NCBI GenBank assembly: GCA_038884755.1
Contig: JAWABJ010000001.1
Coordinates: forward strand, 153,792 to 217,791
DNA from: Candidatus Norongarragalinales archaeon
Lineage (GTDB): Archaea; Micrarchaeota; Micrarchaeia; Norongarragalinales; Norongarragalinaceae
DNA length: 64,000 nucleotides
Direction of reading: 5' to 3'
Shown: piece after piece, positions 760 to 58,978 of the stretch
How the letters are laid out: each line of letters starts with the position of its first letter
Numbering within the stretch: the stretch's first letter is position 1
Made by a program: the position numbers and the translations under genes
Notes under the pieces: generated by a model
Seen by the model: only the letters and a program-made list of their open reading frames with translations
What the model was told of the DNA's origin: nothing
Database searches by the model: none

Positions 760-1662
760 TCAGGCACTTGCTACCACCATTTGTTTTTCTTTCAACGCTT
801 TCACGAACAATTCTCCTGCCTTGTAAGAACTGCGTACGAACGGTCCTGACGCACAATAGAGAAAGCCTTTTTCCAGCGCTTTTGTCTTGAACCAGCCGAA
901 TTTTTCTGGCGCGACGTATTCGAAAACCGGAAGCTCGCGTTCTGTCGGGCGCAAGTATTGGCCGAAAGTGATGAAATCGCATTTTACGCTTCGCAAGTCG
1001 TCCATCGTTTTCAGCACGCTTTCGTCCTGCTCTCCCATTCCCAGCATTATCGAGCTTTTCGTGAATATGGTCGAATCCATTTTCTTCACGTTTTCCAGCA
1101 CGCCGAGGGACTGGGCGTAGCCGGCGCGCATGTCGCGCGCCACGCGCTGTAGTTCTTCGACCGTTTCAACGTTGTGCGCGATGACGTCCGGCTTTGCTTC
1201 GACAATCGTTTTCAGGCACTGTTCGTCGCCGCGGAAATCCGGAATCAGCACTTCAACCAAGACGCCTTCACAGTGCTTGCGTATTGCACGAATGCATTTG
1301 GCGAAATGCTCGGCCCCTTGGTCCGGCAGGTCATCACGGTCCACGCTTGTTATGACGACGTAGTCCAAACCCCACTTGCGTACTGCTGAAGCTATTTTCC
1401 AAGGTTCGAGGACGTCGATAGGCTGTCCTTCGATTCCTTTGCCCACGCTGCAGAAATGGCATCCTCTGGTGCATATGCTTCCTAAAACCATGAACGTTGC
1501 AGTTCCCGAGCTCCAGCACTCGCTCGCGTTGGGGCAGTGTGCTTCTTCGCACACTGTAACCAAGCCCAATTGCCTCAGCGTGGCTTTTACGCCTTCAAAA
1601 TTTTCTTTTGGAGGGCGTATTTTCAGCCACGAGGGCTTTTGTTCCGCGTAGTGGGTTTGCAT
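760..1662 (-). CDS. lipA: lipoyl synthase (radical SAM)
   Basis: 300 aa. It has the CEEAHCPNASECW and CTRGCHFC cysteine clusters typical of LipA. It sits directly upstream of E1-alpha on the same strand. Confidence 0.9.
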   Translation of the reverse strand: MQTHYAEQKPSWLKIRPPKENFEGVKATLRQLGLVTVCEEAHCPNASECWSSGTATFMVLGSICTRGCHFCSVGKGIEGQPIDVLEPWKIASAVRKWGLDYVVITSVDRDDLPDQGAEHFAKCIRAIRKHCEGVLVEVLIPDFRGDEQCLKTIVEAKPDVIAHNVETVEELQRVARDMRAGYAQSLGVLENVKKMDSTIFTKSSIMLGMGEQDESVLKTMDDLRSVKCDFITFGQYLRPTERELPVFEYVAPEKFGWFKTKALEKGFLYCASGPFVRSSYKAGELFVKALKEKQMVVASA

Positions 1663-1772
1663 ATCCTTTCTTTCAGTCGAACAAATCTTTTAACTGTTTT
1701 CGGCATCGCCAATTGTCGTTCGTTTCACTATGCTTTTATTCAAGCGCAAGCCGAATTTTTACGCTGTTGGAA

Positions 1773-1922
1773 ATGGATTTCACGAAAATAATGGAGTGGG
1801 ACGAACTGCGCATAGTGTTGGGAGTTTTGCTAATGCTTTTCGGCCAGTTCGACATCGGGTTTTGGGTCGCGATTTTGGGTTTGTTCATGTTTCTCACTAC
1901 CGAAGGCTACTTGAGCTTTTAA
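1773..1922 (+). CDS. small hydrophobic protein (49 aa), hypothetical
   Basis: MDFTKIMEWDELRIVLGVLLMLFGQFDIGFWVAILGLFMFLTTEGYLSF, one or two TM helices. A TTTTATT TATA-like box lies about 45 nt upstream. A GCGGTTT/AAACCGC hairpin lies just downstream. Confidence 0.3.
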   Translation: MDFTKIMEWDELRIVLGVLLMLFGQFDIGFWVAILGLFMFLTTEGYLSF

Positions 1923-1972
1923 AACTCCAGCGGTTTTTTAAACCGCCTTTCTTTAAGAGTAGGGAGGGTGTT

Positions 1973-2329
1973 TTGTCGTTGGTTCATTTGGAAGCAGCAG
2001 ATGCTTTAATCCAGGAAGTGAGCCTGGTTTTGAGTGCGGTCGTGCTGGTGTTTTGGGTTTCGTATTCGCTCATGCTGTACCACCAGTTGAAGCGAGGCAC
2101 GGTGCGGAAGGACTGGTGGCTGTCCATGGTGTTCTACATAGGCATAGGCCTGCTCGTGCTCGCGAATTTGCTTCTGGCTTTCAGCCAGCTTTACCACACG
2201 CCCATAGGCGAGCGCGTTTCCATCGCGGTGAACATGGTTTCCATGGTGGTTTTCATCTTCGCTTTCTATTTGCGAATGAAGTCTTCGCTGGAAAACCACT
2301 ATTCCCCTTCCTCGAAAAAGCGCAGGTAG
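1973..2329 (+). CDS. hypothetical membrane protein (about 3 TM), likely TTG start
   Basis: The C-terminal 118 aa of the 1730..2329 ORF are hydrophobic (LSAVVLVFWVSYSLMLYHQLK...IGIGLLVLANLLLAF...MVSMVVFIFAFYL). A GGAGGGTG Shine-Dalgarno-like box sits just before a TTG codon. The upstream part of the ORF looks non-coding. Confidence 0.35.
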   Translation: MSLVHLEAADALIQEVSLVLSAVVLVFWVSYSLMLYHQLKRGTVRKDWWLSMVFYIGIGLLVLANLLLAFSQLYHTPIGERVSIAVNMVSMVVFIFAFYLRMKSSLENHYSPSSKKRR

Positions 2330-2423
2330 GTTTAAAGTTTGCGGCGCCGAAATAAGCTTCGGAATTGGATGGGGGAGCGCAAGGGCAGTGCCTTTAACAA
2401 AGGTTTTTAAAGCAGTTTTGGCT

Positions 2424-2435
2424 TTATTATAAAGT
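2424..2435 (+). promoter_or_regulatory. TATA box (TTTATTATAAAG) about 35 nt upstream of rpoH
   Basis: An AT-rich TATA-like element with an upstream purine-rich BRE-like stretch. It is positioned appropriately for an archaeal promoter driving the RNAP operon. Confidence 0.4.
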
Positions 2436-2468
2436 CGAGTGTTTAGAGTATTCTCTTTAGGTTTTGGG

Positions 2469-2696
2469 ATGGATTCTGCCTTCACCCACTATTTGGTTCC
2501 AAAAATGGAGAAGATTGGCGACAAGGAACTAGCAGAGCTTTTGCAAAAGATGCATTGCACGAAGGAAGACTTGCCTTTGATAAACTTTTCAGACTCGGGT
2601 TTGAAGGGATTGGAAGTCAGCGCGGGGGACGTCGTGAAAATAACCCGCGACGAGAAGAAGAAGGAATTCTACTACCGCCTGGTAGTCGAAGATTGA
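2469..2696 (+). CDS. rpoH: DNA-directed RNA polymerase subunit H (Rpb5 homolog)
   Basis: 75 aa beginning MDSAFTHYLVPKMEKIGDKELAELL...DLPLI...DSGLKGLEVSAGDVVKITR. The size and position immediately upstream of rpoB are canonical for archaea. Confidence 0.8.
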   Translation: MDSAFTHYLVPKMEKIGDKELAELLQKMHCTKEDLPLINFSDSGLKGLEVSAGDVVKITRDEKKKEFYYRLVVED

Positions 2697-2766
2697 AACT
2701 GCGTTTGCAGAGCATTGGCGCGTTCGGCCGCACAGGCCGCGTGCGTGAATAAGGGGTTGCCTGGGT

Positions 2767-4233
2767 ATGTTCAAGCAAGTTTCAAGCGCGTTTTTGAAGG
2801 AAAACACTATCGTAGACCAGCACATCGAGTCTTTCAACAACTTTGTCGAGAAAACGATGCAGGACATTGTCGACGCCCAGCGCGTTATCGAGCCGCAAGT
2901 CGAGGGGCTGAGCGTGAAGCTGGGCAAAATCCGCGCGGAAAAGCCCATGGTCGTGGAAGGAGACGGGTCGAGGAGGCCGTTGTACCCGCTCGAAGCGCGG
3001 CTGCGCGATTTGAACTATTCCGCGCCTTTGTTTTTGGAAATGACGCAAGTCGTAAAGGGAATAGAAAAGAGGACTGAAGACGTTTACGTGGGCGAGCTGC
3101 CCGTGATGCTCAAATCGAGGCTATGCTACCTGCACGGGCGCAACGCGAAGGAACTGCAGCAGATTGGCGAGGACTCGCAGGATGCGGGCGGCTATTTCGT
3201 GATAAACGGAACGGAAAAGACGCTGATGATTCTCGAGGATTTGGCGCCGAACCGCATTCTCGTTTCGAGGGAAAAGGAAACGGGTTTGGTTCAGGCGAAG
3301 ATTTTCTCGACGCGCTCCGGTTTCAGGGGGCGTTGCACGGTCGACAGGACGAAGGAAGGGCTGTTGGGCGTGACCATGCCTTCTTACAACAAGCCTTTGG
3401 AACTCGTGCTTTTGCTTAGGGCCTTGGGGCTCGTCGATTCCGAAAGGATTGTGGACGCGTTTTCTTCCGCTACCGAAGTGAAGAACGACATCCAGCTCAA
3501 CCTCGAGGACAGCGTTGAAATAAAGAGCAAGCGCGATGCGCTGGAAACGATCGGAAAGCGCGCCGCTCCCGGCCAGCCCGTCGACTATCAAATAAAGAGG
3601 GCCGAAGTTTTGATAGACCGTTATTTGCTGCCGCACATCGGCATTGAAGAGAAAAACCGCCTGGCGAAGGCTTTCTTCTTGTGCAGGATGGCCGAGCGCG
3701 CCATACTTGTTGCTTACAAAAAGCGTCCGGTTGACGACAAGGACCATTATTCCAACAAGCGTTTGAAGACTCCCGGAAAATTGATGGAGGAAGTGTTCCG
3801 CTACGCGTTCCAGTTTCTCGTGAAAGACGTTGCGTACCAAATGGAACGCGCTAACGTTCGAGGGCGCAGGATGACTATGTTTGCCATAGTGCGTCCGGAC
3901 GCGTTGAGCGACAGGATAAAATATTCGATGGCAACTGGCAACTGGGTGGGCGGCTATACAGGCGTGTCGCAGCCTTTGGACCGTTATAATTTCATTTCAG
4001 CCGCGGCTTTCTTGAAGAGAGTGACTTCGCCTTTGGCTAAAAAACATCCGCACTACAAGGCGCGCGACTTGCACGGCACGCACTGGGGGCGATTGGACCC
4101 GAACGAGACTCCTGAAGGCCCGAACTGCGGCTTGGTGCGCAACTTGTCCTTGTATTCGGAAATAACTGTTGGTGCGAAGACAGAGGAAGTGGAGAAAGTT
4201 TTGAGCAAGCTGGGAGTTTCGATGAACGTTTAA
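2767..4233 (+). CDS. rpoB2: DNA-directed RNA polymerase subunit B'' (N-terminal half of split RpoB)
   Basis: 488 aa, collinear with the N-terminal half of Rpb2/RpoB. It ends 10 nt before the B' start. Confidence 0.95.
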   Translation: MFKQVSSAFLKENTIVDQHIESFNNFVEKTMQDIVDAQRVIEPQVEGLSVKLGKIRAEKPMVVEGDGSRRPLYPLEARLRDLNYSAPLFLEMTQVVKGIEKRTEDVYVGELPVMLKSRLCYLHGRNAKELQQIGEDSQDAGGYFVINGTEKTLMILEDLAPNRILVSREKETGLVQAKIFSTRSGFRGRCTVDRTKEGLLGVTMPSYNKPLELVLLLRALGLVDSERIVDAFSSATEVKNDIQLNLEDSVEIKSKRDALETIGKRAAPGQPVDYQIKRAEVLIDRYLLPHIGIEEKNRLAKAFFLCRMAERAILVAYKKRPVDDKDHYSNKRLKTPGKLMEEVFRYAFQFLVKDVAYQMERANVRGRRMTMFAIVRPDALSDRIKYSMATGNWVGGYTGVSQPLDRYNFISAAAFLKRVTSPLAKKHPHYKARDLHGTHWGRLDPNETPEGPNCGLVRNLSLYSEITVGAKTEEVEKVLSKLGVSMNV

Positions 4234-4242
4234 GGTGGAAAC

Positions 4243-6054
4243 ATGAAGCACGCTGGGGTTTTTGTCGACGGGAAGTTCGTGGGTTTCGCCGAGAACGGCG
4301 AGAAGCTCGCAAGGGAATTGCGGGAAATGCGCAGGGCCGGCGACGTGCACTCGCAAATCAACATCGCTTTTTATGCGAAAACCAACGAGGTTTTCATAAA
4401 CACCGACGAGGGCCGCGTGCGAAGGCCTTTGATCGTGGTGAAAAACGGAAAGCCGTTGCTTTCGAAAGAGCAGGCTGACAAGCTCGAGAAAGGCGAATTG
4501 CATTGGAAGAACCTGGTGGAACAGGGGCTGATCGAGTTTTTGGATGCTGAAGAGGAGGAGAACGCTTTCGTGGCGCTTAAGCCGGAAGACGTCACGCCCG
4601 ACCACACGCACTTGGAAATAGACCATTCTATGATTCTCGGCTTCGCTTCTTCGCAGCTTCCGTATCCCGAGTACAACATGGCGCCCAGGGTTTTGATGTC
4701 GGCGCAGCACGCGAAGCAGAGCTTGGGCCTTTATGCTTCCAACTTCAATTTGCGAAGCGATACGCGCGCGCACGTTTTGTTCTACCCGCAACAGCCGTTG
4801 CTGCAAACCAGCGCGTACCGCAACTTGCGCTTGAACAAGCGGGCTTCAGGCCAAAACCTCGTGGTCGCCGTCCTTTCCTACAAGGGCTTCAACATGAACG
4901 ACGCGGTGGTGTTGAACAAGACGAGCGTCGAGCGAGGCATAGGGCGCAGTGCTTTCATACGCACTTACGGCGCCGTCGAAAGGCGTTATCCAGGCGGGCA
5001 GAAGGATTCGTTCGGGATTCCCGAAGAGTACGTGCAGGGTTTCCTCGGGGAAGAGGCTTACGCTCATTTGGACGAAGACGGCTTTGCAGCGCCTGAAACT
5101 GTGGTCAAAGGCAACGCCGTTCTGGTTGGAAAGTCTTCGCCGCCCAGGTTTTTGAAGGAAATTTCGGCTTTGGAAATGGAGAGCGAACGCAGGCGGGAGT
5201 CGAGCGTAACCGTGCGGGGCAACGAAGAAGGCACTGTTGATGCGGTTATTCTGAGCGAAACGACTTCCGGGAACAAGATGGTCAAGATTCGCGTGCGCAA
5301 CACCAACATTCCTGAAGTGGGAGACAAGTTCGCTTCGCGCCACGGGCAAAAAGGCGTTGTTTCCATCCTCGTTCCGCAGGAAGACATGCCTGCCACGAAA
5401 GACGGGATTACTCCCGACTTGATAATCAACCCGCACGCAATTCCCGGCAGAATGACCGCCGGGCATTTGCTTGAAATGCTCGGGGGCAAGGCGAGCGCGT
5501 TGAAGGGAAGCATAGGTGACGCGACTGCGTTTTCCGGAGATAAGCAGGCGGATTTCGAGAAAGTCTTGCTGCAAAACGGTTTCGAGGCTGCGGGGCAGGA
5601 AGTGCTTTACGACGGCAAGACCGGCGAACGCCTGTACGCAAAGATTTTCATGGGAGTAATTTACTACCAACGCTTGCACCATCTGGTTTCCCTCAAGATG
5701 CACGCTCGCTCGCGCGGGCCGGTGCAAATGCTCACCCACCAGCCGACCGAAGGCCGCGCTCGCGAGGGCGGATTGCGTTTGGGTGAAATGGAAAGGGATT
5801 GTTTCATTGGTTACGGTGCAGCGTCGCTTTTGAAGGAAAGGATGATGGACTCGAGTGACAAGACTGTGGAGTTGGTGTGCGCGAATTGCGGTTCGCTGGC
5901 GTATACCGACAGGCAGAAGAACAAGAGCTATTGCGCGTTGTGCGAGAGCAGCGACATACAGCCTGTCGAAATGAGCTACGCGTTCAAGCTTTTGCTTGAT
6001 GAGATGAAGTCCATAGGAATATTTCCGAAACTGCGTCTTGGAGACCGGGCTTAA
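4243..6054 (+). CDS. rpoB1: DNA-directed RNA polymerase subunit B' (C-terminal half of split RpoB)
   Basis: 603 aa. It contains the conserved GDKFASRHGQKG and QPTEGRAREGGLRLGEMERDC motifs and a C-terminal Zn ribbon CANCG...CALC. Confidence 0.95.
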   Translation: MKHAGVFVDGKFVGFAENGEKLARELREMRRAGDVHSQINIAFYAKTNEVFINTDEGRVRRPLIVVKNGKPLLSKEQADKLEKGELHWKNLVEQGLIEFLDAEEEENAFVALKPEDVTPDHTHLEIDHSMILGFASSQLPYPEYNMAPRVLMSAQHAKQSLGLYASNFNLRSDTRAHVLFYPQQPLLQTSAYRNLRLNKRASGQNLVVAVLSYKGFNMNDAVVLNKTSVERGIGRSAFIRTYGAVERRYPGGQKDSFGIPEEYVQGFLGEEAYAHLDEDGFAAPETVVKGNAVLVGKSSPPRFLKEISALEMESERRRESSVTVRGNEEGTVDAVILSETTSGNKMVKIRVRNTNIPEVGDKFASRHGQKGVVSILVPQEDMPATKDGITPDLIINPHAIPGRMTAGHLLEMLGGKASALKGSIGDATAFSGDKQADFEKVLLQNGFEAAGQEVLYDGKTGERLYAKIFMGVIYYQRLHHLVSLKMHARSRGPVQMLTHQPTEGRAREGGLRLGEMERDCFIGYGAASLLKERMMDSSDKTVELVCANCGSLAYTDRQKNKSYCALCESSDIQPVEMSYAFKLLLDEMKSIGIFPKLRLGDRA

Positions 6055-6064
6055 GGGTGGAAAA

Positions 6065-9000
6065 ATGAAGGTCGTAAAAGCAATTGGTTTTTCGATATAC
6101 TCGCCTGAGAACGTGCGTAAGATGAGCGCCGCGAAAATCACCGTTCCAGACACTTACGACGAGGACGGCTACCCCATCAGCGGGGGCCTGGCAGACCAGC
6201 GCTTGGGCGTTGTAGACCCCGGCTTGAAGTGCCGCACGTGCGGAGGAAGGATGAAAGACTGTCCCGGGCACTCGGGGCACATCGAGCTCGTGAGGCCGGT
6301 GATTCACGTCGGTTTCGCAAAGCTCATTTACAATTTGCTGAAAGCCACTTGCAGGAAATGCGGAAGGCTCATGCACTACGCTTCGCGCGTCGAGGAAGCC
6401 AAAAAATCGCTGGAATGCCCGCATTGTGGCGAGAAGCAGAGGAAAGTCAAGTTCGTAAAGCCCAGCGCTTTTTACGAGGAAGACCGCAAGCTCTTTCCCA
6501 ACGAAATCAGAGAGCGTTTGGAGCACATTCCTGACGATGACTTGCGCACGTTGGGCGTTGCAATTCGCCCCGAGTGGGCAGTGCTCACCGTTTTGATAGT
6601 CCCTCCAGTCACAGTCCGCCCTTCTATCACTCTCGAAACTGGGGAAAGGAGCGAGGACGATTTGACGCACAAGCTCGTGGACATTCTTCGAATCAACCAG
6701 CGTTTGGAAGAGAATATCGACGCGGGCGCGCCGCAGCTTATAATAGAAGACTTGTGGGAATTGCTGCAATACCACGTTACCACTTACTACGACAACGAGA
6801 CTTCCGGAATTCCTCCTGCGCGACACCGTTCGGGGCGCCAGCTTAAGACTTTGTTCCAGCGTTTGAAGGGCAAGGAAGGGCGCTTTCGCTACAATCTCAG
6901 CGGAAAGAGGGTAAACTTTTCGGCCCGCACCGTGATTTCTCCCGACCCAACGCTGGGAATAAACGAGTTGGGCGTGCCGATGGAAATTGCGAGAGAGCTT
7001 ACCGTTCCGGTCAGCGTGACGCAATGGAATTTGGAGAACGTGAAGGAAATGATTCGCGCTCGCGCCGAGGCCATAAATTACGTAATCCGCCCAGACGGGA
7101 AGAGGAAGAAAATCACTACCGCCAACATAGAAGAGGTTTTGACCGAGCTTACGCCGGGCTATACTGTGGAAAGGCAGCTGTTCGACGGCGACGTAGTGAT
7201 ATTCAACAGGCAGCCTTCCCTCCACCGCGTTTCGATGTTGTGCCATGAAGTCAAGGTTTTGCCTGGAAAAACGTTCCGCTTTAACGTCGCAAATTGCAAC
7301 CCGTACAATGCCGACTTCGACGGAGATGAAATGAACATTCACGTTCCGCAGACTGAAGAGGCGCAGGCTGAAGCCGAACTGCTGATGAAAGTTCAGGATA
7401 ACATCCTCTCGCCGCGCAACGGCTCTCCGCTTATCGCGCCCGACTTGGACCAAATCACGGGATTGTATTTGCTTTCGCTCGACGATTTCGTTGTTACTAA
7501 AAAGGAAGCTTGCAATTTGCTTAACGCAGCTGGAGTGGATGGCGCGTTGGAAAAAAGCTTGGTGAGCGGCAAGGAAATTTATTCCATGATATTGCCTGAA
7601 AAGTTCGACTTGGAGCTTGAAGGCAAGGGTGGAAACAAAGTCCGCATAAAGAACGGGAAGCTCACCGAAGGGTTTTTGGACGCGCACGCCAACCGCACCG
7701 TCGTGAGACGAATTTTCGACGAGTTTGGGAGTGAGGAAGCTCGAAAGTACGTTGACAAGGCGACCAAGCTTTCGGTCGAGCTTGCATACCGCTACGGGTT
7801 TTCGCTGAGCTTGAAGGACTATTACTTGCCCGAATCGGCGATTGCGGAAATAACCAAGCTTTACGACGAGGGCAGGCAGCGGCTCGTAGAGCTCGTGAGG
7901 AAATACAAGACCAGGAAGCTTGAACGGCTTCCGGGAAAGACGCTCAAGGAAACTCTCGAAGAGCAGGTAATGAACATCGTCGAACTCATACGCTTCCACT
8001 GCTGGACTATAGTCAAGGAAAAAATTTCTAAAACCGCCGTAGAAATTAACGGCAGGCAGTTCGAGCACAATTCTTCCCTGCTCATGGCACAGGCCGGGGT
8101 GAAGAACAAGCCCATCAACGTCGTGCAGATGACCGCGCTGGTGGGACAGCAGGCCGTCCGCGGAAAGAGGCCCGCCGCAGGATTCAAGAAAAGGCTTTTG
8201 CCGCACTTCAGGCGTGGCGATTTGGGCGACGCGGCGCGCGGTTTCGTCAAAAACAATTACAAGAGCGGGTTGAATGCCGTCGAGTATTTCTTCCACGCTG
8301 CGGGAGGAAGGGACAGCGTGGTCGACAAGGGAGTTAACCCGGCAAAGACTGGTTACATGCAACGCCGTCTCATTAATGCATTACAGGATTTGATCGTAAA
8401 GGAAGACGCGAGCGTCAGGGACAGCGAAGGAAAAATAGTACAGTTCAAGTACGGCGGGGACGGAATCGACCCTTCGACTGGAAAGCAAATCGCTTACGGC
8501 GAGCCTGTCGGGGTTATCGAGGCGCAGAGCATCGGCGAGCCCGGAACTCAAATGACTTTGCGCACTTTCCACTATGCCGGCGTAGCTTCGCTGGCGCAAT
8601 TCGGCTTCACGCGTTTGGTAGAGTTGGTGGACGCCCGCAAATCGCCGAAAAAGCCGGTCATGGAAATTTGCCTGAAGAAAAGCATTGCAGGCGATTTCGA
8701 GAAAGTCAAGACGATAGCTGCCAGCATCGAAAGCGTGGTTTTGGAGGACGTTGCGGAAACCAAGGAGAATTTCGACCGGAAGGCGATTACCATAACCCTC
8801 AACCCATTGCTGCTCAAGGACAAGGGAATCCGCGAAAAGGCGATTTTGGACGAGATTGGTAAAATAACCCCCAACTTCAAGCACGAAGGACACGAGATTG
8901 TGATTAAAACGAAGGAAGAGTCCCTCAAGGCCGTACGTAAGTTGACTCTACGCTTCAAGGAATTGCATTTGGGCGGAGTCAAGGGAATAAGGAAAGCGAT

Positions 9001-9472
9001 TATCGTGGAAAAGAAGACCGAAGGCGGGAAGGAGTACACCATCGCAACCGAAGGCTCTAATCTCGAAGACATTCTCAAGCTGGAAGAAATAGACTCTCAC
9101 CGCACGAGCACGAACGACATCATGGAAATAGGGCGCGTTCTCGGGATAGAAGCGGCGCGAAACGCGATTATCCAGGAAATAAAGAAAGTGTTGGACACGC
9201 AGGACTTGACTGTCGACGAAAGGCACATAATGCTCATCGCCGACGCCATGACTTTCTTGGGCGGAGTGAAGAGCGTTGGAAGGCACGGGCTTGCAGGGCA
9301 AAAGAAAAGCGTGCTTGCGCGCGCGGCGTTCGAAGAGACCGCAAAGCATTTGCTGAACGCATGCATTTACGGAGAGGAAGACCCGCTGAAAGGCATAGCG
9401 GAAAACATCATCATCGGGCAAACAATCCCTGCTGGAACCGGCACAGTGCAACTGGAAATGAAGCTCGAGTGA
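6065..9472 (+). CDS. rpoA: DNA-directed RNA polymerase subunit A, unsplit (A' and A'' regions in one reading frame)
   Basis: About 1135 aa from MKVVKAIGFSIYSPENVRKMSA. N-terminal Zn motifs CRTCGG...CPGHSGH and catalytic NADFDGDEMN are present. Reading continues without a stop through the A'/A'' junction (...KYGGDGIDPSTGKQIAYGEPVGVIEAQSIGEPGTQMTLRTFHYAGV...) to the A''-type C-terminus IIGQTIPAGTGTVQLEMKLE. Confidence 0.9.
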   Translation: MKVVKAIGFSIYSPENVRKMSAAKITVPDTYDEDGYPISGGLADQRLGVVDPGLKCRTCGGRMKDCPGHSGHIELVRPVIHVGFAKLIYNLLKATCRKCGRLMHYASRVEEAKKSLECPHCGEKQRKVKFVKPSAFYEEDRKLFPNEIRERLEHIPDDDLRTLGVAIRPEWAVLTVLIVPPVTVRPSITLETGERSEDDLTHKLVDILRINQRLEENIDAGAPQLIIEDLWELLQYHVTTYYDNETSGIPPARHRSGRQLKTLFQRLKGKEGRFRYNLSGKRVNFSARTVISPDPTLGINELGVPMEIARELTVPVSVTQWNLENVKEMIRARAEAINYVIRPDGKRKKITTANIEEVLTELTPGYTVERQLFDGDVVIFNRQPSLHRVSMLCHEVKVLPGKTFRFNVANCNPYNADFDGDEMNIHVPQTEEAQAEAELLMKVQDNILSPRNGSPLIAPDLDQITGLYLLSLDDFVVTKKEACNLLNAAGVDGALEKSLVSGKEIYSMILPEKFDLELEGKGGNKVRIKNGKLTEGFLDAHANRTVVRRIFDEFGSEEARKYVDKATKLSVELAYRYGFSLSLKDYYLPESAIAEITKLYDEGRQRLVELVRKYKTRKLERLPGKTLKETLEEQVMNIVELIRFHCWTIVKEKISKTAVEINGRQFEHNSSLLMAQAGVKNKPINVVQMTALVGQQAVRGKRPAAGFKKRLLPHFRRGDLGDAARGFVKNNYKSGLNAVEYFFHAAGGRDSVVDKGVNPAKTGYMQRRLINALQDLIVKEDASVRDSEGKIVQFKYGGDGIDPSTGKQIAYGEPVGVIEAQSIGEPGTQMTLRTFHYAGVASLAQFGFTRLVELVDARKSPKKPVMEICLKKSIAGDFEKVKTIAASIESVVLEDVAETKENFDRKAITITLNPLLLKDKGIREKAILDEIGKITPNFKHEGHEIVIKTKEESLKAVRKLTLRFKELHLGGVKGIRKAIIVEKKTEGGKEYTIATEGSNLEDILKLEEIDSHRTSTNDIMEIGRVLGIEAARNAIIQEIKKVLDTQDLTVDERHIMLIADAMTFLGGVKSVGRHGLAGQKKSVLARAAFEETAKHLLNACIYGEEDPLKGIAENIIIGQTIPAGTGTVQLEMKLE

Positions 9473-10275: not shown

Positions 10276-10312
10276 ACGAAAAAAAAGGGCTTTTTTTGAA
10301 AAGCCCTTTTTT
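10276..10312 (+). terminator. hairpin plus T-tract terminator-like structure
   Basis: AAAAAAAAGGGCTTTTTTTGAAAAGCCCTTTTTTTTT: a GGGCTTTT/AAAAGCCC stem with T tracts on both strands. Confidence 0.5.
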
Positions 10313-10387
10313 TTTTCCTTCTTTTGTGCATTTGCTTAAGGCGCGGTTTTGTTTCGTTTAGTTTTTCGTTTGGCGGGCGTGATTTGA

Positions 10388-19741: not shown

Positions 19742-19752
19742 AGCTTTTTGAT

Positions 19753-19911
19753 AAAACTTTTTCGCAAAAAGTTTTCTTTTTCCGAATCTTTCTTTGTTGA
19801 AGCGTTCTTTTCTTTACTCAATTTTTCTTTTCCTAAAAGAAAAATTGGAGGGCTCGGTAGTCGTAATCTCATCATTCCGTTTTTTGATCAAACTTTTTAT
19901 AAAAAAGTTTG
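19753..19911 (+). repeat. three AT-palindromic hairpins in the L14e-cbf5 spacer (members of the window-wide hairpin family)
   Basis: 19753-19775 AAAACTTTTTCGCAAAAAGTTTT; 19819-19847 CAATTTTTCTTTTCCTAAAAGAAAAATTG; 19889-19911 CAAACTTTTTATAAAAAAGTTTG. Confidence 0.7.
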
Positions 19912-19988
19912 TCAGAGTCAAGCCTTTATCTTCATAGCCCAATTACTTATTGAATATCTTAAACTATTATCTGTTTTCGTGGGTAGAA

Positions 19989-20912: not shown

Positions 20913-21040
20913 GTTTTTTTGCGCATCGAAAGGGTTTTTAAATCGGTGTAGAATAGTGTTATACTGGAAAATTAAAGGCTCACGGAGCTCTCTGTTTTTC
21001 CCGAAGGTTTTTAACCGCGAGAAAGCAAATTCTTTCTTGC

Positions 21041-21236
21041 GCCGGGATGGCAGAGTGGTTAATGCGCACGCTTGGAAAGTCTTTTTCTGGTTGCTCTTTT
21101 TCGAGCGTACCGAAAACTTCCCTTACAGCGTGTGGCCGAAAGGCCTCCTGAGTTCGAAAGCTTTTCTTTCTTTGCAAAAGAAAGAAAACCTTGGAAAAGA
21201 AAGAAAACGCGAGAGACGAGATTCTCAGTCCCGGCG
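21041..21236 (+). tRNA. tRNA-Ser (anticodon GGA), type II, with two introns (about 49 nt at 37/38 and about 64 nt in the T-loop)
   Basis: Acceptor GCCGGGA/TCCCGGC plus discriminator G; D-arm GCA/TGC; anticodon stem CACGC/GCGTG with loop TTGGAA|A; long variable arm T-GGCC-GAAA-GGCC-TC; T-arm CTGAG-TTCGAA|T-CTCAG. Intron 1 spans about 21078-21126 and intron 2 about 21160-21223. Confidence 0.7.
21162..21188 (+). repeat. hairpin-family copy inside the T-loop intron of tRNA-Ser
   Basis: CTTTTCTTTCTTTGCAAAAGAAAGAAAA, followed by CCTTGGAAAAGAAAGAAAACG. Confidence 0.7.
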
Positions 21237-23956: not shown

Positions 23957-24041
23957 GCAGGGGTGGCAGAGCCTGGTCAAATGCGCTAGCTTGAGGTGCT
24001 AGTCTCTTAGGAGTTCGGGGGTTCAAATCCCTCCCCCTGCA
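23957..24041 (+). tRNA. tRNA-Leu (anticodon GAG), type II, intron-less
   Basis: Acceptor GCAGGGG/CCCCTGC plus A73; anticodon stem CTAGC/GCTAG with loop TTGAGGT; variable arm TCTCTTAGGAGT; T-arm GGGGG-TTCAAAT-CCCTC. Confidence 0.85.
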
Positions 24042-24042
24042 T

Positions 24043-24085
24043 TGAATTTTTCTTTTAGAAAAAGAAAAATTCAGTAAAGAAAAAC
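24043..24085 (+). repeat. hairpin-family copy immediately 3' of tRNA-Leu
   Basis: TGAATTTTTCTTTTAGAAAAAGAAAAATTCA, followed by GTAAAGAAAAACG. Confidence 0.75.
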
Positions 24086-24114
24086 GAAAATGTTCGAAAA
24101 GAGTTGGAAACAAA

Positions 24115-28012: not shown

Positions 28013-28194
28013 GCGGCGATGGTCTAGTGGTATGATCCGAGCCTTCCATTGAATTTTTCTTTTTTTTTACAAAAAAAGAAAAATTCAGTAAAGAAAAAAC
28101 TTTCAGGAAAGCTTGAGGCCCGGGTTCGATAGGGGCGAAACTGCGTTTCTCCCTCTTCCTTTCGGAAAAGGTGCCGAAAATCCCGGTCGCCGCA
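28013..28194 (+). tRNA. tRNA-Gly (anticodon TCC) with two introns (61 nt at 37/38 and about 50 nt in the T-loop)
   Basis: Acceptor GCGGCGA/TCGCCGC plus A; anticodon stem CGAGC/GCTTG (G-U pair) with loop CTTCCA|A; T-arm CCGGG-TTCGA|AT-CCCGG. Intron 1 spans about 28049-28109 and intron 2 about 28130-28179. A T10 tract follows the gene. Confidence 0.65.
28050..28100 (+). repeat. hairpin-family copy inside the anticodon-loop intron of tRNA-Gly (contains a T9 run)
   Basis: TGAATTTTTCTTTTTTTTTACAAAAAAAGAAAAATTCA, followed by GTAAAGAAAAAAC. It is nearly identical to the copy 3' of tRNA-Leu. Confidence 0.75.
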
Positions 28195-35369: not shown

Positions 35370-35532
35370 GGGCCTTTAGTATAGCCTGGATAGAATAGGG
35401 GCTTCCGAAGCCTCAGACAGGGGTTCGAAGACCGCCTTTTCTTTTTAGAAAAAGAAAATGCGGTCGGCCGAAAAGAAAACGGTCGTCAGTCTCAAAGAAG
35501 CGCGGACTAGAACGGAAATCCCCTAAGGCCCG
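35370..35532 (+). tRNA. tRNA-Arg (anticodon CCG) with an 89-nt T-loop intron; D-arm imperfect
   Basis: Acceptor GGGCCTT/AAGGCCC plus G; anticodon stem GGGGC/GCCTC with loop TTCCGAA; T-arm AGGGG-TTCGAA|T-CCCCT with the intron at about 35430-35518. The D-stem pairs poorly. Confidence 0.5.
35430..35480 (+). repeat. hairpin-family copy at the 5' end of the tRNA-Arg(CCG) T-loop intron
   Basis: GACCGCCTTTTCTTTTTAGAAAAAGAAAATGCGGTC, followed by GGCCGAAAAGAAAACGG. Confidence 0.7.
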
Positions 35533-35614: not shown

Positions 35615-35734
35615 GGGCCCGTGTGGTAATGGACAACCGGCGGGGCTTCGGACCCCGAGTTGCGCGTTCGAAGAACCTTTCTTTGCGAAAGAAAGCTTTG
35701 CCAAAGAAAGGCAGCGAAAATCGCGCCGGGCCCG
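35615..35734 (+). tRNA. tRNA-Arg (anticodon TCG) with a 48-nt T-loop intron
   Basis: Acceptor GGGCCCG/CGGGCCC plus G; D TGGT/ACCG; anticodon stem CGGGG/CCCCG with loop CTTCGGA; T-arm GCGCG-TTCGAA|T-CGCGC with the intron at 35673-35720 containing the hairpin CTTTCTTTGCGAAAGAAAG. Confidence 0.65.
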
Positions 35735-35737
35735 CTT

Positions 35738-35784
35738 AAACTTTCTTTTTTTTGCGAAAAAAGAAAGTTTAATCAAAGAAAAAG
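35738..35784 (+). repeat. hairpin-family copy 3' of tRNA-Arg(TCG), also 9 nt upstream of the 35793 gene
   Basis: AAACTTTCTTTTTTTTGCGAAAAAAGAAAGTTT, followed by AATCAAAGAAAAAG. Confidence 0.75.
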
Positions 35785-35792
35785 GGAAGGAA

Positions 35793-37670
35793 ATGTTTGT
35801 CGCGCTTTTGTTTCTCTTGAGTTCGCTTTACTCCGGGTTCGTCGCCGCGAAAAAACTCGGCATTCTGGATACCGAAATCAAGCGGCTTTCGATTGGTTTT
35901 CTCGCGGGTTTCGTGCTGCAAAGCGCGTTTTTGCTCGCGCTGTCGTGGCTTTCCGGCGGGCTTGAGGAGCAATGGATTCTGCTTTCGTCGGTTGTTTTCG
36001 TTTTGGCCGCTTTCGCTTTCGACAGGCGTTTCGCCGTTGCGAGATTGAGGGAAAGGAGGCTTCCTTTCGTTTCCAACGCGGACAGGATTGCCCTCGCTTT
36101 TTCCCTGTTGTTTCTTGCCTTGAATTTCCTTGCAATCCTGCATCCCACGCAAACCGGCTTCGAGTCTGTGGCGAGCGTTTGGGGGGATTATCCCCTGCAT
36201 TTGAGCATAGCGAATTCCTTCGCATTGCGGGACAATTTTCCGCCGCAATACCCCGTTTTGCTGGGAGAGCCTTTGAAATACTCTTTCCTGTTCGACTTCA
36301 GTTCCGCAATACTGTTGAAAGGCGGTTTCGACTTCCGTTCGGCATTCCTTGTGCCAAACGCCTTGGTTTTCGTGGCTTTCGCGCTGGCGCTGGTGCTGTT
36401 GTGCGAGCTTTTCGCCGGAAGCAAGGGAAGGGTTTTGTTCGTTTTCCTGGCTTTCGCATTGTTTTTCTTCAACGGGAACTACGGGATGGCGGGCGCGCTT
36501 GAAGACGCTTTTTCGCAGGGAAGCCTGTCGCCGCTTTTGCACCCCGACCGCAATTATTCCAACGCAGACGACAAGGGCGTGGTGGTGATGAACTGGGTTT
36601 ACTCCATTCTCATGCCGGCGAGAAGCGCTTTGTTGGGCCTGGCAATTTCGGTTTTCACTTACGCCGTGCTTTTCTCGAGCGTGTTGAATTCGCGTTGGAA
36701 CAGGCGGGAGCTTTTTGCAGCGGGCGTTTTGGCCGGGCTTTTGCCTCTAGCCCACGCGCACTCGCTAGTGGTTGTTGGTGCGGTTGCCGGGTTTTTGTTC
36801 CTGTTTTCCGTGCGAAAGTGGAAAGAGTGGGTTTTTTTCGCCGGTCCCGCCGCAGTTATTGCCTTGCCGCAGTTGGCTTGGCTTTCTTCCAAGGTTTTCT
36901 TCAAAATTTTTCCCGGTTGGCTTTCGCCGGAAAAAAGCTTTCTAGGTGTTGCAGAGTTTTGGGTCAAGAATGGGTGGGCCGTGCTCCTTTGCTTTGCGGC
37001 TTGGCTTGCGTTCGCTTTGAAAAGCAATGACTGGAAAAGACTGGCTCTCGCCGCTCCCTTCGCCTTGGTTTTCGTGCTTGCGAACCTCTTCGTGCTTCAA
37101 CCGTGGGAGTGGGACAACACCAAGTTTTTCATGCAATTCTTTCTTTTCGCCTGCATTGCAAGCGCGTTGTTCCTGGAGTCGCTGTGGACGGCACAAGGAA
37201 AACAACGAATTTTGCACAAGGCGGTCGTTGTCGTGATAGTGCTTTTGGGAGTTGCGTCGGGAGTGCTGGCAATATTGTGGACCGGCTGGGGGGACAACGC
37301 GCGTTACGAGACGTTCTCGAAAGAGGACGTTGCGCTTGCTGCATGGATAACTGTCAACACGCCTAGCGGCGCGTTGTTTTTGAGTTCCACTTTCCACCAT
37401 AATCCAGTGCCTGCTCTGGCCGGAAGGCAGATTGTGGCCGGGTACGAAGGCTGGCTGTGGAGCCACGGGCTAAACTACCAAAAGACTTTGCAGGACGCCA
37501 AGAAAATGTTCGAAGAGGCGGACTGCCGTTTGATGGGCGAGTACGGAGTTGATTTCGTGCTTGTAAGAAAAACGTGGGAGGATGCGGCGTTGTACGAAGG
37601 AAAAGGTTTCGAAAGGGTTTATTCCGACCGACGCGGGAACATGGTTTTCAAGTCCAATTGCATTGCATAG
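35793..37670 (+). CDS. large polytopic membrane protein, GT-C-like glycosyltransferase candidate (paralog B)
   Basis: 625 aa, collinear paralog of 17552..19489: shared HPDRNY, LFAAGVLAGLLPL and VRKWKEW blocks, and the same C-terminal soluble domain. Confidence 0.55.
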   Translation: MFVALLFLLSSLYSGFVAAKKLGILDTEIKRLSIGFLAGFVLQSAFLLALSWLSGGLEEQWILLSSVVFVLAAFAFDRRFAVARLRERRLPFVSNADRIALAFSLLFLALNFLAILHPTQTGFESVASVWGDYPLHLSIANSFALRDNFPPQYPVLLGEPLKYSFLFDFSSAILLKGGFDFRSAFLVPNALVFVAFALALVLLCELFAGSKGRVLFVFLAFALFFFNGNYGMAGALEDAFSQGSLSPLLHPDRNYSNADDKGVVVMNWVYSILMPARSALLGLAISVFTYAVLFSSVLNSRWNRRELFAAGVLAGLLPLAHAHSLVVVGAVAGFLFLFSVRKWKEWVFFAGPAAVIALPQLAWLSSKVFFKIFPGWLSPEKSFLGVAEFWVKNGWAVLLCFAAWLAFALKSNDWKRLALAAPFALVFVLANLFVLQPWEWDNTKFFMQFFLFACIASALFLESLWTAQGKQRILHKAVVVVIVLLGVASGVLAILWTGWGDNARYETFSKEDVALAAWITVNTPSGALFLSSTFHHNPVPALAGRQIVAGYEGWLWSHGLNYQKTLQDAKKMFEEADCRLMGEYGVDFVLVRKTWEDAALYEGKGFERVYSDRRGNMVFKSNCIA

Positions 37671-39927: not shown

Positions 39928-40578
39928 TTACTTCTTGCGCAAAACCAAAAACAAGTGGTCTTGCTCGAACGGCTCCAAGGGGATTTCCTGCTCGATTTCG
40001 AAAGCCTCGGAAAGGGTTTTTTTCACTTTCGCGTACACGCGCGCAGGTTCTTCGACGGAATTTATTGCGCGTGACTTGATTGCAATCAGCGCATAACCCC
40101 CTTTCGCGAGAAAACGGGAGTTCGCGTTGAGTATTTCCGCCTGCTGGGGGTCTGCAACATCCTCGAAAACCACATCGACAGAGCCGATTTCCTCGTAATT
40201 CTCGGGCTTGCGCGCGTCGGCAAGGATGGGTATCATGTTGCCCCGTTTTTCGCACACGCTGATTAAATCGCGCATGGCGATGGGTGCTACTTCAATGCAG
40301 TAAACTTCCCCTTTGCTTCCCACTATGTCGCTTACGAACGAGGGCGTGGCGCCGTGTGCTGCGCCCAAATAAAGGACTTTAGACCCTTTGGTTATGGGCA
40401 TGTGCTTGATGCCTTTCGCAATCGCCGCGCAAAGCTTGCTTTGGTGGGGGTTCCACTCGCGGTATTGAATTCCTTTTTCCTCGACGAGCTTTTCCCCGTG
40501 CACCTTGAATCCTTTGAGGGAATTGCGCGTGTAGAAAAAGCTGTTTTGCGCGTAAATCCCCGGAAAAATTTCTTTCAC
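39928..40578 (-). CDS. flpA: fibrillarin-like rRNA/tRNA 2'-O-methyltransferase
   Basis: 216 aa beginning YREWNPHQSKLCAAIAKGI...KVLYLGAAHGATPSFVSDIVGSKGEVYCIEVAP. It lies directly downstream of nop5. Confidence 0.9.
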   Translation of the reverse strand: MKEIFPGIYAQNSFFYTRNSLKGFKVHGEKLVEEKGIQYREWNPHQSKLCAAIAKGIKHMPITKGSKVLYLGAAHGATPSFVSDIVGSKGEVYCIEVAPIAMRDLISVCEKRGNMIPILADARKPENYEEIGSVDVVFEDVADPQQAEILNANSRFLAKGGYALIAIKSRAINSVEEPARVYAKVKKTLSEAFEIEQEIPLEPFEQDHLFLVLRKK

Positions 40579-56542: not shown

Positions 56543-56625
56543 CCAACCGACGTTTTCGTTTGAAAATAGCTTGCGCTTGTTTGCTACTCTTTTTGTGCAG
56601 GCACTCTTTTAATTGGTTCGCAAAG

Positions 56626-56701
56626 CGGGCCCGCCGCGATTTGAACGCGGGACCTTCCGCTTAGGAGGCAGATGCTCTCTTCCAGGCTGAGCTACGGGCC
56701 C
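56626..56701 (-). tRNA. tRNA-Arg (anticodon CCT), intron-less
   Basis: The reverse complement reads GGGCCCG-TA-GCTC-AGCCTGGAAGA-GAGC-A-TCTGC-CTCCTAA-GCGGA-AGGTC-CCGCG-TTCAAAT-CGCGG-CGGGCCC-G. Confidence 0.85.
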
Positions 56702-56760
56702 AAACTTTCTTTTTCGCAAAAAGAAAGTTTGATCAAAGAAAAACGACGCAAAGAAAAACC
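56702..56760 (+). repeat. hairpin-family copy abutting the 5' end of tRNA-Arg(CCT), about 70 nt upstream of the antiporter gene
   Basis: AAACTTTCTTTTTCGCAAAAAGAAAGTTT, followed by GATCAAAGAAAAACG and ACGCAAAGAAAAACC. Confidence 0.75.
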
Positions 56761-58890: not shown

Positions 58891-58921
58891 ACTAATAAAC
58901 TCCAGTGAACAAAATTTTGTT

Positions 58922-58978
58922 TAGTGATGATAACTGAACAACCTCTGAACCGATGATGAGGCTGATAGCGTCTGATCC
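58922..58978 (+). ncRNA. candidate C/D box sRNA (2'-O-methylation guide)
   Basis: C box GTGATGA (58924-30); D' CTGA (58945-48); C' TGATGA (58954-59); D box CTGA (58972-75). The D guide is GGCTGATAGCGT (12 nt) and the D' guide TAACTGAACAACCT. It is intergenic, and nop5/flpA are present in the window. Confidence 0.45.

Follow-up and report, generated by a model that had tools for sequence, protein, structure and literature searches.

Families of tRNA introns with similar sequences are known from the Thermoproteales, where they have been read as the outcome of intron transposition, the mechanism of which is unknown (Fujishima et al. 2010, as summarized in PMC4090602). Here we describe short fold-back repeat units found in and beside the tRNA genes of a Norongarragalinales archaeon (Micrarchaeota, DPANN). 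The stretch analysed, called the window below, is 64 kb (64,000 nt) of a housekeeping region, with genes for RNA polymerase subunits, ribosomal proteins, Cbf5, fibrillarin (39928-40578), PolB and PolD. As in the Thermoproteales, close relatives differ in intron presence (PMC4090602). However, the present case belongs to another phylum, the Micrarchaeota; what is shared is not an entire intron but a discrete fold-back unit, and this unit is also met after protein genes, at the 3' and 5' borders of tRNAs, at and inside a C/D box RNA, and at helix tips of 23S rRNA. ARMAN-2 (Ca. Micrarchaeum), of the same phylum, likewise has introns at position 59/60, multiple introns per tRNA and many disrupted tRNAs, together with relaxed helix-bulge-helix (hBH) motifs and a three-unit splicing endonuclease that cleaves relaxed motifs; unlike here, the available part of that account mentions neither a shared palindromic module nor flank copies (PMC3239211). 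In eukaryotes, introner-like elements are transposon-derived spliceosomal introns, and the likeness to the present family lies in a proliferating repeat that becomes an intron by bringing or creating what the splicing machinery needs (PMC11282704). The differences are that the machinery here is a protein endonuclease acting on a bulge-helix-bulge motif, that the organism belongs to another domain of life, and that the hosts are RNA genes.

The window units are short, self-complementary and non-coding and fall into subfamilies, and in this they are like miniature inverted-repeat transposable elements (MITEs) and the palindromes related to the repetitive extragenic palindromic (REP) sequences, such as REP/RAYT (REP-associated tyrosine transposase) and Correia elements. 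Those elements are likewise short, abundant, self-complementary and non-coding, with subfamilies, and often sit at gene 3' ends as terminators or RNA-stabilizing hairpins. However, the window units have no evident target-site duplication and no partner transposase among the 58 open reading frames (ORFs) of the window, and a bias towards stable RNAs with residence inside tRNA and rRNA genes is atypical of MITEs and REP-like palindromes. Archaeal intrinsic terminators consist of oligo-T, and T5-T9 runs lie directly past tRNA and small-RNA 3' ends in the window, on both strands; the unit differs from such a terminator in being an extended palindrome with a conserved linker and a third arm, and in occurring inside genes as well.

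The units constitute a real repeat family of short (about 35-50 nt) fold-back elements, which this Norongarragalinales genome shares with a group of related Micrarchaeota. Each begins with a T/C-rich arm (L) and a loop of about 3 nt, after which comes the A/G-rich arm that pairs with L (R1); in most units a short linker leads on to another A/G-rich copy (R2). A preliminary description of the window had listed at least ten AT-palindromic hairpins, and all ten were located, with perfect stems of 8-17 bp and loops of 2-5 nt, usually 3 nt; in the copy at 35430-35465 it is the core (35437-35458) that is perfect, the GC extension holding one mismatch. The R2 copy, AAAGAAAAACG or a variant with one or two mismatches, follows eight of the ten hairpins, the preliminary description having noted it for several, at a spacing that proves to be 2-12 rather than 2-6 nt. 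The pattern TTTCTTT..AAAGAAA..AAAGAAA occurs at eight distinct sites in the window and a stricter three-part pattern at five, versus 0.00 expected in each case from shuffled sequences. When loci from related metagenome contigs (labelled L134-L154) are counted together with the window, 63 units are found in about 240 kb, and Watson-Crick pairing at their stem positions 8-13, counted from the loop, is 63-92%, with four pair types. Terminal inverted repeats and many dispersed copies, by which MITEs and fold-back elements are recognized, are both present. Because the palindrome is identical on both strands, the orientation of a unit is set only by the trailing R2; this places the copies at 19753, 19819 and 19889 on the minus strand, contrary to the earlier statement that all copies lie on the plus strand.

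The distribution of the units is strongly tied to stable RNAs. Nine of the ten hairpins lie inside or no more than 3 nt from a stable-RNA gene (binomial P = 2e-5, with stable-RNA territory making up 24% of non-coding DNA and including a C/D box small RNA recognized only after the units had been seen). The 3' ends of 37 protein genes were inspected in the window, and all of them lack the motif and have plain T-runs instead, so that the uniform intergenic distribution which had been named as incompatible with a tRNA association was not found. The label of a tRNA-targeting element nevertheless proved too narrow, since helix tips of 23S rRNA and the C/D box small RNA, both at its end and in its interior, have units as well. 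Within the window, four of the seven tRNAs (Ser, Gly, Arg(CCG) and Arg(TCG)) were missed by ARAGORN with intron mode on and by Rfam at E <= 5, because their introns are long or non-canonical; in-silico splicing restores the cloverleaves of Ser(GGA), Gly(TCC), Arg(CCG) and Arg(TCG), and these intron-bearing tRNAs are real, as had been claimed. Units are carried by four of the six introns, in the sense orientation in all four. We dropped this orientation as an argument for insertion at the RNA level, as one recurrent intron type in related loci has an extra arm on the 5' side. The tRNA genes and their units are the following, the introns of the four disrupted genes being those obtained by in-silico splicing.

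21041-21236, plus strand: tRNA-Ser(GGA), two introns, 21079-21127 (37/38) and about 21159-21222 (59/60).
21159-21222, plus strand: T-loop (59/60) intron of tRNA-Ser(GGA), with a hairpin of the 'CCTTGG' subtype at 21162-21188 and CCTTGG + AAAAGAAAGAAAACG at 21189-21209.
23957-24041, plus strand: tRNA-Leu(GAG), no introns.
24043-24086, plus strand: subtype-A unit, 1 nt past the tRNA-Leu(GAG) 3' end; hairpin 24043-24073 with a 14-bp stem and loop AGA, a GT linker, then R2 as AAAGAAAAACG at 24076-24086.
28013-28194, plus strand: tRNA-Gly(TCC), two introns, 28049-28109 (37/38) and 28131-28180 (59/60).
28049-28109, plus strand: canonical (37/38) intron of tRNA-Gly(TCC), with a subtype-A hairpin at 28050-28087 (17-bp stem with a T9 run) and a tail of GT + AAAGAAAAAAC at 28088-28100.
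35370-35532, plus strand: tRNA-Arg(CCG), one intron at 59/60.
35430-35518, plus strand: T-loop (59/60) intron of tRNA-Arg(CCG), with the extended hairpin 35430-35465 (perfect core as above) and GGCCG + AAAAGAAAACGG at 35466-35482.
35615-35734, plus strand: tRNA-Arg(TCG), one intron at 59/60.
35673-35720, plus strand: T-loop (59/60) intron of tRNA-Arg(TCG), with a hairpin at 35677-35695 and CTTTGCC + AAAGAAAGG at 35696-35711.
35736-35785, plus strand: subtype-B unit, 1 nt past the tRNA-Arg(TCG) 3' end; hairpin 35736-35772 with a T8 run, then TC + AAAGAAAAAGG.
56625-56701, minus strand: tRNA-Arg(CCT), no introns.
56701-56760, plus strand: subtype-B unit abutting the 5' end of the minus-strand tRNA-Arg(CCT); hairpin 56701-56731, then ATC-AAAGAAAAACG-ACGC-AAAGAAAAACC.

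The flank unit of tRNA-Leu has an RNA fold z of -3.45, that of tRNA-Arg(TCG) ends 7 nt upstream of the ATG at 35793, and that of tRNA-Arg(CCT) sits between the tRNA and a divergent Na+/H+ exchanger gene.

Several of these copies are closely similar although the sites they occupy are not orthologous. In subtype A (AATTTTTCTTTT..AAAAGAAAAATT) the stems are of the AATT kind and the linker is AGT; it is found in the 3' flanks of tRNA-Leu and the small RNA and in tRNA-Gly intron 1, and in introns and flanks of L140 and L141. Subtype B (AAACTTTCTTTT..AAAAGAAAGTTT), with AAAC/GTTT stems and the linker ATC, occupies the 3' flank of tRNA-Arg(TCG) and the 5' flank of tRNA-Arg(CCT) and occurs elsewhere in Ala, Ser and Glu introns and in a protein-gene spacer. 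The claim that one and the same element serves both as intron content and as flanking DNA held: the tRNA-Leu 3' flank and tRNA-Gly intron 1 are near identical, sharing CA-TTGAATTTTTCTTTT..AAAAGAAAAATTCAGTAAAGAAAAA with the boundary after CA. A second near-identical pair is formed by the tRNA-Arg(TCG) 3' flank and the tRNA-Arg(CCT) 5' flank, of the common form AAACTTTC..GAAAGTTT-ATC-AAAGAAAAA. Similar intron sequences in non-orthologous tRNAs and at different positions, as expected of transposed introns, are seen for subtypes A and B in Gly, Ala, Ser and Glu introns. The 59/60 intron of tRNA-Arg(CCG) resembles the canonical 37/38 intron of tRNA-Gly in L150, and the T-loop unit of tRNA-Ser, AGC-TTTTCTTTCTTT..AAAGAAAGAAAA-CCTTGG-AAAAGAAAGAA, is nearly identical to units in 23S rRNA insertions of L154. 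Across genomes the stem type and the linker stay coupled, although the search pattern permitted mixed combinations; this points to descent by copying, not convergence.

A strict scan of metagenomes returned 16 loci, all of them true hairpin units and most of them at tRNAs or the small RNA. In five loci the unit stands at the 3' end of the orthologous small RNA. The other contexts are a tRNA-Ala with one unit at its 3' end and another in its canonical intron, further tRNAs with units in canonical introns (among them a tRNA-Ser(GGA) on a contig of 42% GC), an insertion in the T-arm of a tRNA-Glu, and one site directly past a protein stop codon. The density of hairpins in unrelated loci is invalid as a control because these loci were chosen by the motif. 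On related contigs the subtypes occupy the 37/38 and 59/60 introns of tRNAs, the 3' and the 5' borders of tRNA genes, sites following protein genes, and helix-tip insertions of a 23S rRNA gene. The arrangement at tRNA-Arg(CCT) of the window recurs in L140, where a tRNA-Val on the minus strand has a unit directly against its 5' end. The most distant relative, L154 (neighbouring protein 39% identical), holds 12 units in 21 kb, one in the canonical intron of tRNA-Ala(TGC), one at the 3' end of that tRNA and others within the 23S rRNA gene. Two of the 23S insertions were confirmed at helix-tip loops, one of 61 nt at model position ~871 and one of 111 nt, with two tandem units, at ~1455; the latter begins AGCTTTTCT and ends AGAAAAGCT, and the stem predicted for it stacks on the helix of the host. 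At more than 8 kb, the L154 gene for 23S rRNA (885-9400) is long and has several further large insertions that include ORFs, one with a faint LAGLIDADG match.

Turnover at orthologous sites is evident. Synteny walks starting at the protein downstream of the tRNA-Arg pair gave a graded series of relatives. The comparison of orthologous tRNAs, which the preliminary description had proposed, reveals relatives that differ both in the presence of intron and flank copies and in the subtype that fills a site. In L150 (neighbouring protein 72% identical) the tRNA-Gly gene has the same promoter, a different unit in intron 1 and no T-loop intron, and tRNA-Arg(TCG) has neither the intron nor the 3' unit; the presence or absence of introns among orthologs that is expected of transposed introns is thus seen for both tRNAs. 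The L151 ortholog of tRNA-Arg(TCG) has other introns, and its 3' flank consists of T8GA5 only. In L134 the exons of tRNA-Ser are nearly identical to those of the window and intron 1 is about 90% identical, yet the T-loop intron holds a different subtype. At the 3' site of tRNA-Ala, subtype A stands in L140 and subtype B in L143, in loci that are 85% identical; the intron in L143 lacks R2. Intron gain and loss by transposition or reverse splicing had been suggested, and gain, loss and replacement are indeed observed in related genomes; transposition, reverse splicing and gene conversion are not separated by this evidence.

The three copies in the spacer between L14e and cbf5, thought at first to be free-standing, flank or interrupt a probable C/D box small RNA. 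This RNA and its units are arranged as follows.

19850-19940, minus strand: probable C/D box small RNA, with GGGCU, C box AUGAAGA, 12-13 nt, D' CUGA, insertion, C' AUGAUGA, 11-12 nt, D CCGA, GCCC.
19803-19847, minus strand: subtype-A unit, 2 nt past the small-RNA 3' end; hairpin 19819-19847, then AGT + AAAGAAAAGAACG at 19818-19803.
19877-19911, minus strand: inserted unit inside the D'-C' loop of the small RNA; hairpin 19889-19911, then ATCAAAAAACGG.
19743-19775, minus strand: tandem second unit downstream of the small RNA, just past the L14e stop codon; hairpin 19753-19775, then ATCAAAAAGC.

The C, D', C' and D boxes, guides of about 12 nt and a terminal stem are all present, the C and D boxes each being off by 1 nt with the GA dinucleotides kept; no Rfam family matched at E <= 5. 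In five metagenome loci the RNA has 85-100% identity to that of the window, as against only about 75-82% for the coding DNA. Together with the RNA, the 3' unit is 91-93% identical in L134, L136, L139 and L148 and 85% identical in L135. The insertion in the D'-C' loop, of 37 nt, is absent from all five related loci, and at its junction the sequence CAGT is replaced, not duplicated. No convincing methylation target was found for this RNA, the only lead being a site with one mismatch in L154. In L140, the 5' end of tRNA-Val (GGGCTCGTAGTCG; 3509-3521) comes close to being the reverse complement of the 3' guide, D box and terminal stem of this RNA (ACGACTACCGAGCCC; 19850-19866, minus strand); this may reflect a methylation target in the tRNA or a shared origin, and a unit follows both sequences. 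A second, well-formed candidate for a C/D box small RNA lies at 58921-58978 on the plus strand (GUGAUGA, 12 nt, CUGA, AUGAUGA, 12 nt, CUGA), below the Rfam gathering thresholds. Directly past it, in the region to 59015, is a second, GC-richer fold-back module (GGAGAAACTACGTTTCTCC..CCTCTTCCT), which is also the core of the tRNA-Gly T-loop intron (28133-28170) and of a tRNA-Ala T-loop intron in L138 (2126-2175); it is thus a second module family with the same 'intron plus small-RNA flank' distribution.

On balance, we lean towards the view that the units are a proliferating fold-back repeat family from which the tRNA introns of this lineage are built. The family would spread by copying or by block replacement, and copies would persist only where the gene product is unharmed. 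Such sites would be, on the one hand, stretches of RNA that are cut away, namely the tRNA introns at 37/38 and 59/60 and the sequence directly 3' or 5' of tRNAs and the C/D box RNA, and, on the other hand, loops that accept an extra helix, namely the internal loop of the small RNA and, in the distant relative, 23S rRNA helix tips, together with some spacers after protein genes. The units start 0-4 nt after a 5' splice site or a mature RNA end, and the T-loop introns end in CGAAAA-like sequences that can pair with the T-loop TTCG, as does CGAAAA at the end of the tRNA-Arg(TCG) intron. From this we infer that the helix of the unit would supply the intron-side helix of a relaxed bulge-helix-bulge motif, that the intron 3' end (CGAAAA or similar) and the T-loop TTCG would form its central 4-bp helix, and that a broad-specificity Micrarchaeota splicing endonuclease could then excise the unit-bearing intron. 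In the predicted folds of pre-tRNA-Ser (intron 2) and pre-tRNA-Arg(TCG), the T stem is followed by a 3-nt bulge, a 4-bp UUCG:CGAA/CGAG helix, a loop and a helix of L with R2, an hBH-like arrangement of the relaxed kind on which the ARMAN-2 endonuclease acts (PMC3239211); in tRNA-Ser the left arm is thus predicted to pair with the distal purine copy and to close the intron. The minimum-energy folds of tRNA-Gly intron 1 and tRNA-Arg(CCG) are not canonical bulge-helix-bulge structures. Flank copies would present oligo-T on both strands and probably act as oligo-T terminators as well.

A number of observations weigh against this view. None of the 58 window ORFs was found to encode a transposase, integrase, reverse transcriptase or splicing endonuclease. 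No consistent target-site duplication was apparent at the few junctions compared by eye; CGAA near the 3' end of T-loop introns is needed for pairing regardless of such a duplication. The hairpins abut mature RNA ends within 0-2 nt, a precision that random insertion followed by selection does not obviously explain. T5-T9 runs within introns, as in tRNA-Gly intron 1 (T9 at 28060-28068) and tRNA-Ser intron 1 (T5 at 21082-21086 and 21097-21101), all on the sense strand, should hinder archaeal transcription. In relatives, the small-RNA 3' unit is conserved with compensatory stem changes (CAATT/AATTG, CAAAT/ATTTG, CTGAATT/AATTCAG), which is the pattern to be expected if it were under selection for a host function. 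Finally, the copy counts are limited to the window and related loci, and the metagenome search pattern itself imposed part of the similarity among the units found.

A stronger form of the same idea is that the unit is an intron-generating mobile element, which inserts into the loops and ends of structured RNA genes and whose stem completes a relaxed bulge-helix-bulge motif, allowing the host endonuclease to excise it; we put this forward tentatively, as a possible but rather doubtful archaeal counterpart of the eukaryotic introner elements. In viral scans one AT-rich phage coding family matched the pattern by chance and subtype-specific patterns gave no matches, so that these scans show no sign of a viral carrier. 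Alternatively, the unit might be a cis-element of the host that serves strongly transcribed stable-RNA genes as a compact insulator or as a terminator working in both directions, its copies in introns being secondary captures. T-runs of at least five start 1-2 nt past the 3' ends of tRNA-Leu, tRNA-Arg(TCG) and the small RNA, at the place where other window tRNAs have plain T-runs and where the L151 ortholog keeps its minimal T8GA5; the spacers from tRNA-Leu and tRNA-Arg(TCG) to the next ORF hold the unit alone; the small-RNA 3' unit is conserved, as already mentioned; and sense-strand T runs of at least 6 are threefold rarer than A runs in window coding sequence (17 versus 54), a comparison confounded by codon usage. 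In subtype B the arm-linker junction (GAAAGTTTAATCA) may also be a promoter for the next gene: it resembles the AAGGTTAATT-type promoters of the genome, and the ATG at 35793, like the ATG in L142, comes about 27-31 nt after it. However, the 37 inspected protein-gene 3' ends of the window are devoid of the unit, the closest ortholog of tRNA-Arg(TCG) has no 3' unit, and the second purine copy and the next start are separated by anything between 18 and 52 nt. Nor would one expect of a generic terminator that sequence identity over 40 nt is retained between genomes with only 39% identity in the neighbouring proteins. Moreover, five window copies lie within genes (four introns and the small-RNA loop) and others within 23S rRNA, where termination would be harmful. 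Because of these intron and loop copies termination is not the general role of the unit; the proposal of a T-tract terminator on both strands is plausible for the flank copies but conflicts with those inside genes, such as the T9 run of tRNA-Gly intron 1. As an account of the family as a whole we consider a host cis-element unlikely.

The position of the hairpin, beginning 0-4 nt past the cut site in all eight window cases, has also been weighed as a processing signal: a hairpin 1-3 nt past the end of a helix would make half a bulge-helix-bulge, to be cut by the splicing endonuclease at the 3' ends of tRNAs and small RNAs as well as at 5' splice sites, and one module would thus mark all cleavage sites. 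The junction of CA with TTGAATTTTTC is identical at the tRNA-Gly 5' splice site and the mature 3' end of tRNA-Leu, the unrelated GC-richer module is distributed alike (T-loop intron and C/D box small-RNA 3' flank), and the Micrarchaeota endonuclease accepts relaxed motifs (PMC3239211). Yet a cut two nucleotides into the bulge leaves an extra nucleotide past the discriminator base, orthologous tRNAs manage without a flank unit, the 5' flank copies are oppositely oriented, and no place is left for the copies that follow protein genes or sit at helix tips of rRNA, so we find such a signal improbable. We regard as still more improbable, and by a wide measure, that the tRNA genes are split in place, with T-runs of the left arm ending a 5' piece, a promoter-like right part starting a 3' piece, and the arms pairing for trans-joining as in Nanoarchaeum. 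It is true that T9 and T5 runs lie within introns, that the second purine copy, taken as its reverse complement (GGTTTTTCTTT), is similar to the core of the GGTTTTTAA promoter and that split tRNAs exist in DPANN relatives (PMC3218864), but the promoter-like reading is antisense to the tRNA, the distances to the next exon are variable, the exons downstream of T-loop introns are only 14-16 nt long and the hairpins of the introns are ordinary cis structures. Chance, in the form of T-runs beside A-runs in AT-rich spacers, we give next to no credence: a loose pattern is found, among the matches listed, in many unrelated bacterial genomes and in one phage coding family, but the shuffle controls, with 0.00 sites expected in the window, refute it, complementarity with covariation reaches into mixed-sequence flanks, and the strict metagenome scan yielded true units at every one of its loci.

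Two further roles for R2 were tried and set aside. In tRNA-Arg(CCT), and likewise in the tRNA-Val of L140, GGTTTTTCTTT occupies -44 to -31, a position taken by GGTTTTTAA in other tRNAs. A promoter role may hold for those two; as a general role it is rejected, as all other copies would point antisense into the host gene. A triple helix was suggested by the tendency of R1 and R2 to be mirror repeats, the mirror match equalling or exceeding the direct match in most asymmetric cases (12 versus 9 in L146). This idea was set aside: the core AAAGAAA is symmetric, a linker of 2-3 nt, as in subtypes A and B, does not have the length needed to fold back across the paired flank, and there are exceptions to the tendency. 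Elsewhere in the window, 10279-10314 is a purine-first palindrome (AAAAAAAAGGGCTTTTTTTGAAAAGCCCTTTTTTTT) with the form of a bacterial-style bidirectional hairpin terminator, a class distinct from the fold-back units. The spacer between cbf5 and tRNA-Ser (20913-21040) contains two promoter-like boxes, AAAGGGTTTTTAAATC and GAAGGTTTTTAACC, its tRNA-proximal part being conserved in L134; the first box could drive an RNA of about 50 nt ending at CTGTTTTTC.

The finding extends the 'intron transposition' known from the Thermoproteales. There, transposition was inferred without an identified moving part, whereas here the shared sequence is a small recognizable fold-back unit, which is seen in several states within one lineage: as an intron, at a tRNA border, in a small-RNA loop, at an rRNA helix tip and in an intergenic spacer. 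A practical consequence is that the standard tRNA finders overlook more than half of the window tRNAs on account of the inserts. If the unit were indeed an intron-generating element, it would explain directly how non-canonical tRNA introns, and some rRNA insertions, are gained in bursts. In this family there is a concrete candidate for the way in which introns arise at many positions of archaeal tRNA genes, and with it the question becomes testable.

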